A stretch of DNA of 64,000 bases from Bacillales bacterium (GTDB lineage Bacteria > Bacillota_I > Bacilli_A > RF39 > UBA660): positions 16,655 to 80,654 of the forward strand of contig JAEEZR010000026.1 in assembly GCA_016292035.1 (NCBI GenBank). Direction: 5' to 3'. The notes beneath the pieces are model-generated. The model saw only the letters and a list, made by a program, of their open reading frames with translations. It made no database searches and had not been told where the DNA came from. Below, in pieces: positions 36,752 through 44,133 of the stretch (the stretch's first letter is position 1; the number at the start of each line of letters is the position of its first letter). The translations under genes and the position numbers were made by a program.

Positions 36752-37120
36752 CTATTTGCCAAACTTATCTAGAAAATACTTTTTCTTCATAGTAATAAAG
36801 TCTTCATTAGATATTTGTAAACTCTCTTCTTCAGAAAGTGGTTCAACTTTAATAGTTTGATTATACTTTTCTTTGTTTTCCTCACTCAAAGGGCTTGAAA
36901 TATCTTCATACTCTCTGCAGAACATCTTACCATCTTGAAATATATTGCTATAAACAACTAAATTTACTGCTCTTTTTAAATCATTATCACCAGTATAAGT
37001 AATAACTCCTTCATCAATATCAGAACCTTTAACGCCTATTTGCTCAATTTTATAAATATTTTTTTCAGTTAAATTTGTACCTTTAAAATGCTTACATAGC
37101 ATTCCCTCTTTATAAATCAT
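36752..37120 (-). CDS. DUF1653-like small protein
   Basis: KHFKG...IYKI...VVYSNIF..GKMFCREYEDI resembles the YRHFKG ... VVY ... WVRP..MF pattern of DUF1653. RBS AAGGAGA. Confidence 0.4.
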   Translation of the reverse strand: MIYKEGMLCKHFKGTNLTEKNIYKIEQIGVKGSDIDEGVITYTGDNDLKRAVNLVVYSNIFQDGKMFCREYEDISSPLSEENKEKYNQTIKVEPLSEEESLQISNEDFITMKKKYFLDKFGK

Positions 37121-37146
37121 AAATGCATCTCCTTAATCAATAAAAA

Positions 37147-37467
37147 TTAACGCCTTACATTTAAAGCTCTAGTAACTTGTTTAACAGAATGAAAGAAGAA
37201 ATCACTTTTTCTTGTTATAACGCACGCATTTTCTAATGATTCTAAAGGATAAAATATATCATTAATAACATCATAAAATCCAAAATCTTGTATCATTACT
37301 CCATATAAATGTAAATTCCCTATTATTTTTACATAATTGCCTTTAGAAGAACATGAAACTGAATCAATACTTTCAAAGTCATTTAAACCAGTCTTAAACT
37401 TCTTAGCAGGGTAAATTCTAGAAGAATTAACAATTACTTCATGCGTAACATAAATAATGTTTTTCAT
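37147..37467 (-). CDS. hypothetical protein (island orphan)
   Basis: 106-aa ORF with RBS TTGGTGAT. No motif recognised. Confidence 0.4.
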   Translation of the reverse strand: MKNIIYVTHEVIVNSSRIYPAKKFKTGLNDFESIDSVSCSSKGNYVKIIGNLHLYGVMIQDFGFYDVINDIFYPLESLENACVITRKSDFFFHSVKQVTRALNVRR

Positions 37468-37525
37468 CTTTCAATCACCAAGGATTATTCTAACATATAA
37501 AAATATAAAATTAAAGAAAAATTAA

Positions 37526-37552
37526 TATAAAAAAGCAAGACATATCTTGCTT
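37526..37552 (-). terminator. rho-independent terminator
   Basis: AAGCAAGA / TCTTGCTT stem followed by a T-run on the minus strand. Confidence 0.6.
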
Positions 37553-37559
37553 TAAATTA

Positions 37560-38471
37560 TTACATTGATCTATTTTGCTCTTCATCTAATGAATAAGATA
37601 TATCATAAGCTTCATTATACGTAATTAGAGGTACATCATGTTTAGTGAAATGGTCTTTATATCTAGTCATTAATATATAAGCAGGTTGTTTTTCAGGATT
37701 AGCATAAGAATAACATTTAATCCAACTATCAAAATTCTTTTCTAAATCGCTGCAAGCCTTTTGAAATTCAGAAGTATATTCAGCTTTTCCTTCAGTAACA
37801 ATTATAATATCTATTAATCTATTAATATGATTCTCCTGACTACTAAATTCCCAGTAATCTTCATGTATACTGCCAAAAGGTCTTTCTAATTTGGCAGCTT
37901 CTATAGCCAAAACACCAAGATTAGGATATTCACGTAAAATATCATCTGAAATAGCCTTAATTCTTTCTTCATCAGTGCGGTAATAAGAAGTAAAATTATA
38001 TTGCATAGTATGGTCTCTTAACCACTTCATTTTATCTAGCTTGGCTTGATGATCACGATCGATAATTTCATCTGCTTGTTTAACAGTAACTAAAGGAATA
38101 GATGGATCTTCTAGATGGCGCTGAAATCTTTGCATAACATAATAAACAGCTTGTTCTTCAGGATTAGCATATGTAAAAGAATCTTTCCAACTATTAAAAT
38201 TACTTGCTAAATCTTTGCAAGCTTTCTCATACTCTGCTGAAAATTGAGGTTTTCCTTCAGTAACTATTACAATATCAATTAATCTATTAATATGATTTGC
38301 TTGTTCACTAAAATCCCAGTAGTCTTCATGAACTCTCCCAAAAGGTTTTTCCATCTTAGCAGCTTCTGTAGCTAAAATACCTAAGTTAGGATATTCAGTT
38401 AAAATGTCATCAGCAACAGCTTTAATCCTCTCTTCTTCACTATTATAATACGCTGTATAATTATATTTCAT
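37560..38471 (-). CDS. orphan protein made of two tandem ~150-aa homologous modules
   Basis: Start moved to the ATG at 38471 (RBS AGAGGTG). The modules share YN.T.YY...EERIKA..DDIL.EYPNLG.LA.EAAK.E.PFG..HEDYW.FS.Q.NHINRLIDI.IVTEGK. Confidence 0.5.
   Translation of the reverse strand: MKYNYTAYYNSEEERIKAVADDILTEYPNLGILATEAAKMEKPFGRVHEDYWDFSEQANHINRLIDIVIVTEGKPQFSAEYEKACKDLASNFNSWKDSFTYANPEEQAVYYVMQRFQRHLEDPSIPLVTVKQADEIIDRDHQAKLDKMKWLRDHTMQYNFTSYYRTDEERIKAISDDILREYPNLGVLAIEAAKLERPFGSIHEDYWEFSSQENHINRLIDIIIVTEGKAEYTSEFQKACSDLEKNFDSWIKCYSYANPEKQPAYILMTRYKDHFTKHDVPLITYNEAYDISYSLDEEQNRSM
37563..38471 (-). repeat. intragenic tandem duplication (unit 1 38007-38471, unit 2 37563-38006)
   Basis: By-eye alignment gives roughly two-thirds identical residues over the first ~110 positions of each unit. 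Confidence 0.8.
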
Positions 38472-38554
38472 TTTTACACCTCTACTATATACATTATATA
38501 TCAAAGACAACGTTTAAGTCTATTAAATTATTAAAAAAATAAAAGAAAGCAACA

Positions 38555-42352: not shown

Positions 42353-42427
42353 CGTTATCACATCCTACAACAATTATATCACATTAATGAATTTCGCTGA
42401 TAGCAATTCTCTATTTATAGTTTAATA

Positions 42428-42457
42428 AATAAAAAAAGAAACATTAATTAGTTTCTT
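42428..42457 (-). terminator. rho-independent terminator
   Basis: AAGAAAC / GTTTCTT stem followed by a T-run on the minus strand. It overlaps the last codons of the 189-aa gene. Confidence 0.55.
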
Positions 42458-43013
42458 TTTGTCTAATAAAATGCTTTCCTAACTTTAAAGTATTAGAGCC
42501 AAATTCCTGTTCATTTTTATTATAGCTAGTAATAGTATTTATATAATAATCAATTAGAATTTCAATATCTCTTTTTAATTTTGGATCATTGGTAGAATCA
42601 TACTCTTTCATGAAATTATATAATTGCCTTGAAACATTTAAAGAATCTATGCCATCTAACATTTCATCTCGATTAATCATCCATTTACAATTAATAATTG
42701 CATTAATAAACATTAGATTTACACTATTATTATTTAGAATAGTAATTGAGCCAATTTTTTTATCTAGATTTGCTCTTTGTACTTTGAAATATAGACTATA
42801 TAGTTTTAACAGTCTATTATCATATATAATGTGCTTTATATCTTCCACATCAATAGTTAAACTCTTTATATTCCAACATTTATCAATTAAACCTTTTTTA
42901 TATGAGTACCATCTCTTCATCAAATAATTTAGTTTCCAATTACTGCTTGAATAATCTGGTTCTTTAATAGTTGGTTTTTCTTTCTTAGTCTTATAACATT
43001 CTATTGTATACAC
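42444..43013 (-). CDS. orphan protein, paralogue A of the 39196-39762 gene
   Basis: GTG start at 43013 aligned with the ATG of paralogue B (RBS AGGAAGTGA). Shared sequence blocks as listed for paralogue B. Confidence 0.5.
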   Translation of the reverse strand: MYTIECYKTKKEKPTIKEPDYSSSNWKLNYLMKRWYSYKKGLIDKCWNIKSLTIDVEDIKHIIYDNRLLKLYSLYFKVQRANLDKKIGSITILNNNSVNLMFINAIINCKWMINRDEMLDGIDSLNVSRQLYNFMKEYDSTNDPKLKRDIEILIDYYINTITSYNKNEQEFGSNTLKLGKHFIRQKETN

Positions 43014-43060
43014 GGTATATCACTTCCTAGTCAATTATTCTATCATATTAACAAACATTT

Positions 43061-43260
43061 TCAAGTTTTTTTATTATCATTTCGTAATCTCGTTTTGCAA
43101 GTTCTATATATTTTAGTTTCTTTTAAGTTTTCTAATACTTCTTTATAAGGATGACCATATCGATTTTTCTACCTACGGGTATTAAACAATTAATATATAT
43201 GAGCAGCTGCCATATGATCATAAAACCCATGTGGTGATATACGTTTATGTATACGGTTAG
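43061..43260 (-). pseudogene. decayed, internally deleted and frameshifted copy of the comEC 3' end
   Basis: The minus strand reads RISPHGFYDHMAAA ... VGRK(frameshift)NRYGHPYKEVLENLKETKIYRT. Intact ComEC reads VISHGDYDHMGEA ... VGKNNKYGHPNKEVLNNLENSKIYRT. A 16-nt identical core GTTCTATATATTTTAG occurs at 43101-43116 and 44240-44255. In-frame stops are present. Confidence 0.8.
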
Positions 43261-43296
43261 AATATATATAATTACAAATAGAAATGGTATAAGTTG

Positions 43297-44133
43297 TTAT
43301 AAACCTATACCACTTTTATTATCTTTTTTTATTTCATATTCTCCAACTATATACATTCTCTGTGTACCAGTCTTTTCATATTCTTTACCATTCATATAAT
43401 AGTCGTCAAATGATTTAATCACACCATTATTTACAAAATCCAAGAATTCTTCATTTGTTAAAGCACCTACAAAGGGGTAATATGCTTGAACACTTCCATT
43501 TTCTTTATATGATGCAATTGGGATACTATAATCTAGCAAAGCATAGTCATTTTTTCTCTTAACAATGTTAAAACAATGTCCCTCTTGTTTATCATTCAAA
43601 TCTACACACCCCATGCAATAATATGATTCTGTGTCAAAAATACTTAATACCTGTTGAACCAATGCTCCTCTTTCCGTACATTGAGCTGCTCCTTTACCTT
43701 TTAAATCACCAAGTTTATTATTTTTTAATGCTTTAAAATACTCTTCATCTGTAGTGGTTGTTTGCCATGCGATTTCATTAAATATTGTTTCTCTATCTAC
43801 TTTACCTGGGAATCCAAAATAACTATTAACAAAATATTCTAGATTATGAATTAATGAAGCTTTATTATTAATGTTATACTTTTTAATAAAGTGTGCAAAT
43901 TCATAAATAAAATCTGTACTTTCCATTCCGTAATCTTCCATATTTAAATTAGCATATTTAATTCTAGTTTTAAGTGGTATGAATCCTTTAAATACACTAC
44001 AAGATTTTCCATTATTTAGAAAGCCTAATTTTTCAACTTTTGCTGCATTTGAATTTGCTTCATTTATAGCTGTTTCAATAATTGAATCAACATCTTCTTC
44101 CTTACATTCCATTATCTTTTGAAGTAAATCCAT
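43297..44133 (-). CDS. orphan protein with papain-fold-like Cys-His-Asp arrangement (NAT/transglutaminase-like candidate)
   Basis: GAAQCTERGALVQQVL ... EGHCFNIV ... YALLDYS order and spacing resemble the G.C.E..L / H....V / (L/V)D triads of arylamine N-acetyltransferase or transglutaminase-like enzymes. By eye only. Confidence 0.35.
   Translation of the reverse strand: MDLLQKIMECKEEDVDSIIETAINEANSNAAKVEKLGFLNNGKSCSVFKGFIPLKTRIKYANLNMEDYGMESTDFIYEFAHFIKKYNINNKASLIHNLEYFVNSYFGFPGKVDRETIFNEIAWQTTTTDEEYFKALKNNKLGDLKGKGAAQCTERGALVQQVLSIFDTESYYCMGCVDLNDKQEGHCFNIVKRKNDYALLDYSIPIASYKENGSVQAYYPFVGALTNEEFLDFVNNGVIKSFDDYYMNGKEYEKTGTQRMYIVGEYEIKKDNKSGIGL

Follow-up and report, generated by a model that had tools for sequence, protein, structure and literature searches.

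Why does a run of ten genes, none of them recognisable as a housekeeping gene, lie directly beside the competence gene comEC? The question arises in a 64,000-nt stretch of DNA (the window; 27% G+C across its length) from a Bacillales bacterium of the RF39 lineage, UBA660 (GCA_016292035.1, contig JAEEZR010000026.1), where positions 36752-44133 are filled by ten minus-strand open reading frames (ORFs), here called g1-g10. A first-pass annotation, made from the sequence alone, noted that conserved gene order stops here and suggested a toxin-antitoxin (TA), immunity or anti-phage island. We propose instead that an attachment site for phages within comEC anchors a zone of cassette accretion and that the block is the decayed, distal part of this zone, a reading to which we give a probability of about two in three. 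The stop in synteny at comEC would thereby be explained by the attachment site within the gene, where accessory genes accumulate.

Tandem comEC 3' ends and a phage attachment site

We scanned the ComEC protein of the window against one genome per species, which returned 66 loci, nearly all of them from metagenome-assembled genomes (MAGs) of uncultured gut or rumen 'Bacilli', 'Tenericutes' or 'Erysipelotrichaceae' (L-numbers below denote the loci and contigs compared). The gene is intact in all 37 of the full-length cases, and these 37 relatives are strikingly uneven in their similarity to the ComEC of the window, with a mean identity of 33% over residues 1-480 as against 79% over residues 494-683. 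Identity steps from 0.28 to 0.73 at residues 491-500 (LVISHGDYDH), and the high C-terminal identity holds even in loop-like stretches such as KEYDNENDNS (0.92). Given this difference, we regard comEC as a mosaic gene of essential function, the last 190 codons of which have been exchanged horizontally across at least 60 species.

Additional copies of this 3' end lie downstream of the gene. Among the 50 informative loci, defined as those with at least 1.5 kb of sequence downstream of comEC, 35 have one to four extra comEC 3' copies of ~570 nt in tandem (2-5 copies in total). There are 51 extra copies altogether, 23 of them full-length and 19 of those 23 uninterrupted; the encoded proteins are 75-85% identical between copies. 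One or two genes separate successive copies, and 88 of the 91 genes within the arrays are on the comEC strand. The genes found most commonly directly after a copy encode either a YhcG/DUF1016 PD-(D/E)XK nuclease (family c1; PADLOC PDC-S02, E 7e-60) or a Bro-N/DinD-like protein, sometimes with NUDIX (family c2; PADLOC PDC-S13, E 1.5e-92). The second gene is highly variable, and includes ADP-ribosylglycohydrolase, transglutaminase-like and several HExxH proteins, with many singletons. Literature searches for comEC cassette arrays, for units with replacement 3' ends and for the RF39 comEC arrangement found none of these described.

All full extra copies begin at one and the same base, at CATGG, and are preceded by a conserved element of ~32 nt. 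This element comes in two main types, t1 (17 cases; ATTCGACTTACTWWTTGACAATCA) and t2 (14 cases; ATTCGTATGCATAAACGTATGTCA), each of which sits directly before CCACATGG and GAYTAYGAYCAT, with the HGDYDH codons following. An exact search of IMG/VR with t1 identified two viral contigs, L069 and L070; the t2 arm has no match in that collection. In L070, t1 forms the left half of a site of 56 bp, ATTCGACTTACT TTTTGACAATCA CCACATGG AGGT ATGTGG TT AGTAAGTCGAAT, which has 12-bp outer inverted repeats and lies 34 nt after the stop codon of a recombinase gene, with a gene for a CI-like repressor adjoining. The recombinase is a large serine recombinase (LSR) of 473 aa with Resolvase, Recombinase and Zn_ribbon_recom domains, and matches the integrase family phrog_95 (E 1e-99). 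L069 is the tail-and-lysis end of a siphovirus (tape measure, Dit, endolysin), and the contig ends exactly at ...CCACATGG. A metagenome scan for the other half of the site, the P' half-site, identified an attL in L082, where a ComEC-like frame reading ...YLKSVGISKLNYLIITH/G (...LNYLIITH/G, with the slash at the joint) is joined to the P' arm; the recombinase encoded after this attL shares 93% identity with the L070 enzyme.

Two other arms, t2 and a third type called t3, are also found paired with this P' arm, t2 in L072, L078 and L085. More than 30 attR-type junctions are found in the arrays, and one more is in the window. The only bases common to attP, attL, attR and attB are CA(T/C)GG, so the crossover lies there; a blastn match of the window to L056 begins at position 44739, the first base of this motif in comEC. 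Since a unit ends in a P half-site and the next begins with CATGG and a comEC 3' end, each boundary is of the attR type. Read at the level of sequence, these junctions show that the HGDYDH codons of comEC serve as the attB of temperate siphoviruses encoding the LSR, in this clade of uncultured low-G+C gut Bacilli. They also show how the arrays are built: most related genomes have tandem units downstream of comEC, each consisting of a replacement 3' end of ~570 nt, one or two same-strand accessory genes, a terminator and a phage-type P half-site.

Some arrays depart from this plan. In L076 (4175-9932) there are units without a comEC 3' end that are bounded by complete palindromic P-core-P' sites. 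Starting from comEC, the array continues with YhcG and a gene of 147 aa; next, an esterase gene lies between a t1 and a t3 P-core-P' site, in that order, and a gene for a helix-turn-helix (HTH) protein comes after them. Then follow a comEC relic, a g1-like gene, a gene of 159 aa, an FGase-like and a g9-like gene, and finally lexA. L049 is the one array locus with an LSR gene close by. The small element there (1-6300) encodes two HTH regulators, YhcG, an HExxH protein and a serine-recombinase homologue with 30% identity to the L070 enzyme, and has a t1 junction; in a hybrid ORF at the same locus, 52 unknown residues are fused in frame to a comEC 3' end. This element may be a recombinase-bearing carrier of a unit.

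We made several further observations on the arrays. HExxH proteins without a Pfam match occupy the second position beside the YhcG nuclease in L005 (12614-13453), L021 (13023-13670), L015 (12928-13650), L018 (11800-12774), L053 (4811-6352) and L049 (4976-6172), making the nuclease and the putative metallopeptidase a candidate two-gene module. In the t1 arm (L001 15002, L002 8817, L053 3284 and others), the sequence TTGACA-N16-TATGAT reads into displaced comEC 3' copies that start ATG GGA GAA; such copies may be expressed as metallo-beta-lactamase fragments of ~190 aa, or may simply be young. Junction type and cargo type (YhcG or Bro-N) are not strictly correlated. Lastly, the P' arm is joined to left flanks other than comEC in L073, L075, L077, L079, L081 and L086, which may be other targets or pseudo-sites; the flank in L075 encodes ...IDIVILSY/G, which resembles a metallo-beta-lactamase motif.

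The gene block of the window

The window has its own unit of this kind, made up of the comEC 3' end and g10 (Table 1). Its DNA is 88% identical over 1425 nt to positions 1869-3290 of L056, where it occupies the second array position, and 87.6% identical over 1449 nt to positions 11506-12949 of L001, where it occupies the first, while the N-terminal parts of ComEC in L056 and L001 have only ~35% protein identity to that of the window. Such DNA identity at different array positions, beside N-terminal parts so diverged, is direct evidence of unit mobility. Indeed, g10 follows a comEC 3' copy in L001, L056 and L091-L096, the last being six human-gut contigs in which it always comes after a displaced copy. 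These comparisons show that units move between species and between array positions, and that the comEC 3' end and g10 of the window are among them.

Downstream of g10 lie a terminator hairpin, a partly decayed attR-type junction (nhmmer E 3e-11 against 14 t2 junctions) and a relic of a comEC 3' end (nhmmer E 2e-14 with a profile of 74 copies; tblastn E 6e-6). The truncation point of the relic is common to the copies after g10 in L001, L056 and L092, suggesting that the relic probably travelled with g10. The first-pass annotation had noticed this decayed copy, which is real and a meaningful marker, but had placed it at the comEC-proximal edge of the block; its actual place is between g10 and g9.

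Relatives of six other genes of the block also occur downstream of comEC. Those of the paralogues g9 and g5 come directly after a comEC 3' copy in L001, L056 and L064, and one (54% identical) lies at the distal array end in L076. Relatives of g8 (53-55% identical) are found immediately after comEC in L067 and two genes after it in GCA_016648615; one of g7 (47%) is within the L050 array, at 5287-5799; L071 has the order comEC, a genuine Fic gene, a g6 relative; and a g1 relative (67%) lies just after the comEC relic of L076, at 7745-8119. The far flanks of these loci differ, and include ftsK, lexA, rpsO-pnp and xerD-tdk, which ties the genes to comEC itself rather than to a neighbourhood that is conserved. 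Relatives of g10, g9/g5, g8, g7, g6 and g1 thus share the same position downstream of comEC despite differing far flanks. A view of the block as non-housekeeping, variable and horizontally acquired is supported.

Table 1. Features of the comEC locus in the window (aa, amino acids)
Feature	Coordinates	Strand	Description
Putative attB core in comEC	44722-44739	-	codons H495-H500 (HGDYDH); homology of mobile units starts at CATGG (44739-44735)
Mobile unit	43318-44739	-	comEC 3' end (residues 495-683), 36-nt spacer with promoter-like boxes, g10
Terminator hairpin after g10	43282-43315	-	-15.7 kcal/mol, z -5.8
attR-type junction	43207-43267	-	t2 P arm (CCGTATACATAAACGTATATCA), CCACATGG, then first codons of a displaced comEC 3' copy; partly decayed
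comEC 3' relic	43100-43190	-	internal deletion; model positions 422-513 of 580; between g10 and g9
comEC, intact	44170-46221	-	683 aa; Pfam Competence, Lactamase_B, DUF4131; anchor of the locus, carries attB
g10	43297-44133	-	278 aa; transglutaminase/papain-like Cys-His-Asp protein; cargo of the only recognisable unit
g9	42444-43013	-	189 aa; paralogue of g5; family c3
g8	41147-42352	-	401 aa; ADP-ribosyltransferase-like N-domain (1-160) and helical C-domain (164-397), both predicted
g7	40520-41041	-	173 aa
g6	39878-40408	-	176 aa; degenerate Doc/Fic-like motif
g5	39196-39762	-	188 aa; paralogue of g9
g4	38555-39088	-	177 aa; weak internal repeat; terminator
g3	37560-38471	-	303 aa; ~150-aa domain in tandem duplicate; terminator
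g2	37147-37467	-	106 aa; orphan
g1	36752-37120	-	122 aa; sub-threshold DUF1653 match
Two further orphans	33964-36717	-	784 aa and 121 aa; no Pfam match; on the comN-secDF side

None of g1-g10 has a match above the curated cut-off in profile searches of Pfam, PADLOC, PHROGs and NCBIfam, and none matches PADLOC-DB 2.0 below E 0.01; the description of the block as ten same-strand orphans without housekeeping function therefore stands. The same searches with Pfam and PHROGs identified no phage genes. All genes are on the minus strand from comEC to a comN-like Post_transc_reg gene (33607-33891), which is followed by secDF, and because two further proteins in this interval are also orphans, the orphan block comprises twelve genes and extends beyond 36752-44133. 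The larger of the two (784 aa; 34363-36717) has an HELGH motif, a hydrophobic stretch resembling a signal or transmembrane segment, and a long K/E-rich low-complexity repeat, with DNA repeats at 34790-35150 within the gene; the smaller (121 aa) is at 33964-34329. Each of seven block proteins looked up in a clustered protein collection is a singleton at 90% identity, and identical proteins occur elsewhere only on contigs of 1-3 kb, with the gene order unchanged. Composition (26-30% G+C) does not set the block apart from the remainder of the window. Neither Rfam nor tRNA scans of the window gave a match, and the block is therefore not a tRNA-linked island.

Several structural claims of the first-pass annotation proved sound. 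The proposed diverged paralogues, g5 and g9, are 38% identical (E 8e-38), and the two proteins described as internally duplicated are so, the halves of g3 being 58% identical (E 1e-67) and those of g4 38% identical over 45 aa (E 3e-7). Most genes had been said to have their own promoter-like box, and several their own terminator. Hairpins followed by T-runs are present after g10, g9, g8, g4 and g3 and fold better than shuffled sequence (z -2.4 to -5.8), and terminator-like sites are enriched (7, as against 2.0 +/- 1.5 expected from shuffles). TGnTATAAT-like boxes are likewise present in the spacers, and most of the ten genes have a promoter-like box of their own, but a generic promoter scan found no enrichment in this AT-rich DNA (103 sites, as against 95 +/- 11 in shuffles). 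Most units have their own terminator; the block is better regarded as a set of independent units than as one operon.

For g10 there are 409 relatives and 327 representative clusters; among the 120 relatives listed, identities are 81-100% and nearly all are 278 aa long. In an alignment of 62 sequences, C152 is the majority residue, H186 is present in at least 90% and D201 is invariant. DUF553 is recognised in nine of the 62 and Transglut_core in three, with g10 of the window itself below every Pfam threshold. The best match of a g10 profile in the PDB is 9crn, a transglutaminase-like protein (E 0.02), and nothing is significant. The AlphaFold2 model of g10 (pLDDT 95.6) has as its top Foldseek neighbours TglA, a putative cysteine protease, vasohibins and arylamine N-acetyltransferases (best E 0.011, none at or below 1e-3), all of which are Cys-His-Asp papain/transglutaminase folds. 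The model thus hints that g10 is a transglutaminase/papain-like Cys-His-Asp enzyme. As in enzymes of this fold (DUF553, Transglut_core; TglA, vasohibins), its Cys, His and Asp fall in the expected helix, strand, strand order; unlike them, it has an extra N-terminal helical region.

The 102 relatives of g8 have no Pfam domain, and its sequence has no significant match among Pfam and PDB profiles. In an alignment of 46 sequences R11, E51 and E130 are invariant, with S/T57 by consensus. The AlphaFold2 model (pLDDT 91.3) has an alpha/beta N-domain and a long helical C-domain, and the only meaningful Foldseek matches are pertussis toxin S1 (7u6z_A, prob 0.82, E 0.24, TM 0.47) and EcPltA. The corresponding residues of S1 are R9, S52 and E129, the last of them named as E129D in the title of the matched entry, and the spacing of R11, S57 and E130 in g8 is nearly the same, as in ADP-ribosyltransferases (ARTs) of the pertussis-toxin type (R-S-E). 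By contrast with these, g8 has no sequence-profile match, no B-subunit and no secretion signal, is fused to a helical domain of ~235 residues, and reaches only the Foldseek E-value given above. These features faintly suggest an ART-like N-domain. As a separate observation, a 37% identical g8 relative in L090 (GCA_045533355.1) lies in a long same-strand run of small unknown genes with an ArdC-N/MPTase anti-restriction gene, a run that resembles the leading region of a conjugative element.

For the remaining proteins the matches are weaker. The g6 motif, QLFDDANHR, has Gln at the position of the catalytic His of the Fic/Doc motif HxFx[DE][AG]N[GK]R; g6 reaches 18.2 bits against DOC_P1, for which the cut-off is 38.65, has no Pfam Fic match and has only seven relatives. 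On these sequence grounds g6 would not qualify as a Fic/Doc toxin, since it has neither the catalytic His nor a score at the family cut-off. g7 has a sub-threshold match to phrog_8170, a family of unknown function (E 7.6e-6). The DUF1653-like label given earlier to g1 corresponds to a match of 18.8 bits over only 25 residues, below the cut-off of 23.5. The earlier call of toxin-type folds thus points in the right direction for g10 and for the N-domain of g8, if weakly, and falls short for g6, which lacks the catalytic His.

One feature of the window lies apart from the block. Within 13000-18000, cumulative GC skew reaches its maximum near 13-14 kb, where gene orientation switches from plus to minus; this region looks like a replication terminus.

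Proposed accretion of units and competing explanations

We propose that the units are non-autonomous, and that the phage recombinase moves them in trans by using alternative att sites at integration and excision. A phage would integrate at the primary attB of an array and, on excising by way of a distal attR, would take along the proximal unit. After integration of this unit-carrying phage in a new host, excision at the proximal attR would drop the unit there and join its new comEC 3' end in frame to the 5' part of the resident gene. This four-step route, which needs canonical reactions only, would explain why every unit starts with a comEC 3' end and why comEC is intact in the 37 full-length cases; comEC would stay intact because each unit brings a fresh 3' end. 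For excision and circularisation of units by the recombinase, the occurrence of one unit at different array positions may count as indirect evidence. Recombination between homologous 570-nt repeats may play a part as well. In the window, older units would have lost the repeats between them by deletion, so that g9-g1 remain as a series of cargo genes, each transcribed independently. The cargo products may be conflict-type effectors, anti-phage or anti-mobile-element, acting as single-gene modules rather than as TA pairs; candidates are the transglutaminase-like g10, the ART-like g8 with its putative helical regulatory domain, and the pseudo-Fic/Doc protein g6.

A number of observations weigh against this reading. 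The window has only one recognisable junction and one relic, and the relic need not be the former comEC end of this genome. Searches of g9-g1 by tblastn at E 50, by nhmmer with junction, P' and 3'-copy profiles, and by mismatch scans found no further comEC 3' traces or att half-sites, so that the cargo status of these genes is read from the positions of their relatives. There is no relative of g2, g3 or g4 in any locus examined, and more distant g8 relatives are not linked to comEC, having IS110 at their flanks or lying in a same-strand array with ArdC. Searches of IMG/VR phage contigs with g3, g8, g9 and g10 gave no relatives. The 64-kb window has no recombinase or integrase homologue, as judged by tblastn with the phage recombinase, and the LSR is so far phage-borne (L070, L082). 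No Foldseek match of g8 or g10 reaches the significance threshold of E <= 1e-3. The route itself is also incomplete. Canonical recombination of attP with attB splits comEC and does not by itself make a unit, leaving the origin of the first unit unexplained; nor does the route account for the chromosomal P-core-P' sites of L076, which call for either integration at an attR-type site or a reaction between molecules of attL with an attR-type site.

The extra comEC 3' ends could instead have spread by natural transformation and RecA-dependent homologous recombination on the ~570-nt repeat, with no site-specific recombinase and with the junction element a scar of shared ancestry. The repeat is certainly long, its copies encode proteins 75-85% identical to each other, the units and the window lack a recombinase, and every competent recipient necessarily has comEC. 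Such spread does not, however, explain why homology begins at the same base, in CATGG, in all units, why the preceding elements are identical to the attP half-sites of an LSR phage, or why three arm types pair with one P' arm; nor does it fit the L076 units without a comEC 3' end between complete P-core-P' sites, or the observed attL with its LSR. We therefore consider it unlikely. Pure RecA-mediated (Campbell-type) integration, and homing by the YhcG nuclease, were likewise considered and were rejected when the junction turned out to be half of a phage attP.

The reading as a classical TA, toxin-immunity or multi-gene defence island, in which adjacent small proteins neutralise g10, g8 and g6 and the link to comEC is incidental, also seems to us improbable. 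It draws on the ART-like N-domain of g8, the Cys-His-Asp protein g10 and the Doc-like motif of g6, on the small unknown genes that lie between these toxin-fold genes, and on the PADLOC defence candidates of sister loci. Against it, g1-g10 have no TA or defence match in PADLOC, Pfam or NCBIfam, the neighbours of g8 and g6 relatives vary between genomes with no conserved toxin-partner pair, and g10 travels alone with the comEC 3' end; moreover, five genes have their own terminator, unlike two-gene TA operons, g6 has no catalytic His, and the link to comEC is systematic. The TA or immunity pattern suggested by the first-pass annotation is thus not borne out. Its suggestion of an anti-phage island finds no PADLOC match among the ten proteins but does gain from the sister loci, the two commonest cargo genes of which are PDC-S02 and PDC-S13, and the island reading as a whole is partly supported.

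That the block is what remains of a single decayed prophage or integrative element in comEC, with the ten genes as its accessory leftovers, we regard as very unlikely, even though an attR-type junction is present, the phage end with the P arm in L069 has same-strand accessory genes after its lysis genes, and g7 has a weak PHROG match. The block has no phage structural, replication or lysogeny genes; relatives of g3, g8, g9 and g10 are missing from IMG/VR; relatives of the individual genes are scattered over separate arrays and genomes; and the junction is upstream of g9-g1, whereas prophage leftovers would lie upstream of attR. In judging that nothing here is an obvious prophage or integrative and conjugative element (ICE), the first-pass annotation overlooked what matters most, the LSR-phage attachment site and the cassette-accretion zone. 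Least probable of all, in our view, is that these are fast-evolving native genes of this lineage without mobility, and that the relic is a chance local duplication. The composition of the block, like that of the rest of the window, and the singleton 90% clusters of the seven proteins looked up are what native genes would give; by contrast, the g10 unit is 88% identical at the nucleotide level across species with ComEC N-terminal parts ~35% identical, the breakpoint of the relic is common to other species, and the link to comEC is kept while the far flanks change. For g10 itself, a native origin is largely refuted.

Returning to the cassette-accretion zone, we find the general phenomenon at the comEC site more interesting than the block of the window, which would be a decayed example. 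It is tempting to go further, although here we lean slightly to the side of doubt: the comEC site, phage-type LSRs and units of 1-3 kb may form an undescribed integron-like or SCC-like platform (SCC, staphylococcal cassette chromosome) that shuttles single-gene conflict modules between species while comEC is kept intact, with the orphans as new defence or counter-defence effectors. If the mechanism holds, a comEC 3' copy with a P arm would be a compact flag with which to mine gut Bacilli metagenomes for single-gene defence and counter-defence modules; the LSRs would be a new serine integrase family with a defined, conserved attB, and such enzymes are useful in genome engineering; and a mobile element that repairs the competence gene it targets would bear on the proposed conflict between transformation and mobile elements.

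Comparison with known systems

The arrays resemble integrons in having small, mostly single-gene cassettes in one orientation, imperfectly palindromic sites, and stacking at one fixed site. They differ in that there is no IntI, attI or attC; recombination sites are serine-integrase half-sites, units bring promoters and terminators of their own, and a comEC 3' end is present in most of them. A closer parallel for trans mobilisation is the accretion-mobilisation of cis-mobilisable elements (CIMEs) at the fda 3' end in Streptococcus thermophilus. There too, non-autonomous att-flanked elements form tandems with an autonomous element, the recombinase of which can move them; in the CIME/ICESt case, however, the enzyme is a tyrosine integrase, the elements are much larger and there is no long replacement of the end of the target gene. 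No tyrosine recombinase was found at the comEC arrays, the xerD-like gene in some flanks being a conserved neighbour.

Prophages with serine recombinases integrate in the comEC coding sequence of streptococci, with a putative ART toxin gene at one end (PMC4260502). These elements (Phi1207.3/Tn1207.3, Phi10394.4 and Tn1207.1 in celB) share with the system described here the target gene, the recombinase class and integration within coding sequence. Unlike the comEC units, they split the gene, abolish competence and bring no replacement 3' end; tandem arrays have not been described for them, and the window, for its part, is without a prophage.

SCC elements have their attB at the 3' end of rlmH (orfX) and use CcrAB or CcrC, which are large serine recombinases; many cassettes are without a recombinase of their own. 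The comEC arrays are like SCC, SCC-like and pseudo-SCC elements of staphylococci and enterococci in their use of an LSR, in their one fixed site in a conserved gene, and in their tandem cassettes, which are bounded by target repeats, often lack a recombinase and carry defence-type cargo. Indeed, Ccr recombinases mobilise tandem SCC-like defence cassettes (PMC11470126). The differences are nonetheless clear. The target is comEC rather than rlmH, and the site is ~570 nt inside the gene; each unit brings a replacement 3' end of 190 codons, as compared with a repeat of ~18 bp in SCC; the units are only 1-3 kb long, with one or two genes; and the recombinase is phage-borne (L070, L082) rather than cassette-borne, with mobilisation here read from sequence. 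The comEC locus therefore works like SCC without being a member of the SCC family, since its target is not rlmH and its recombinase is not Ccr.

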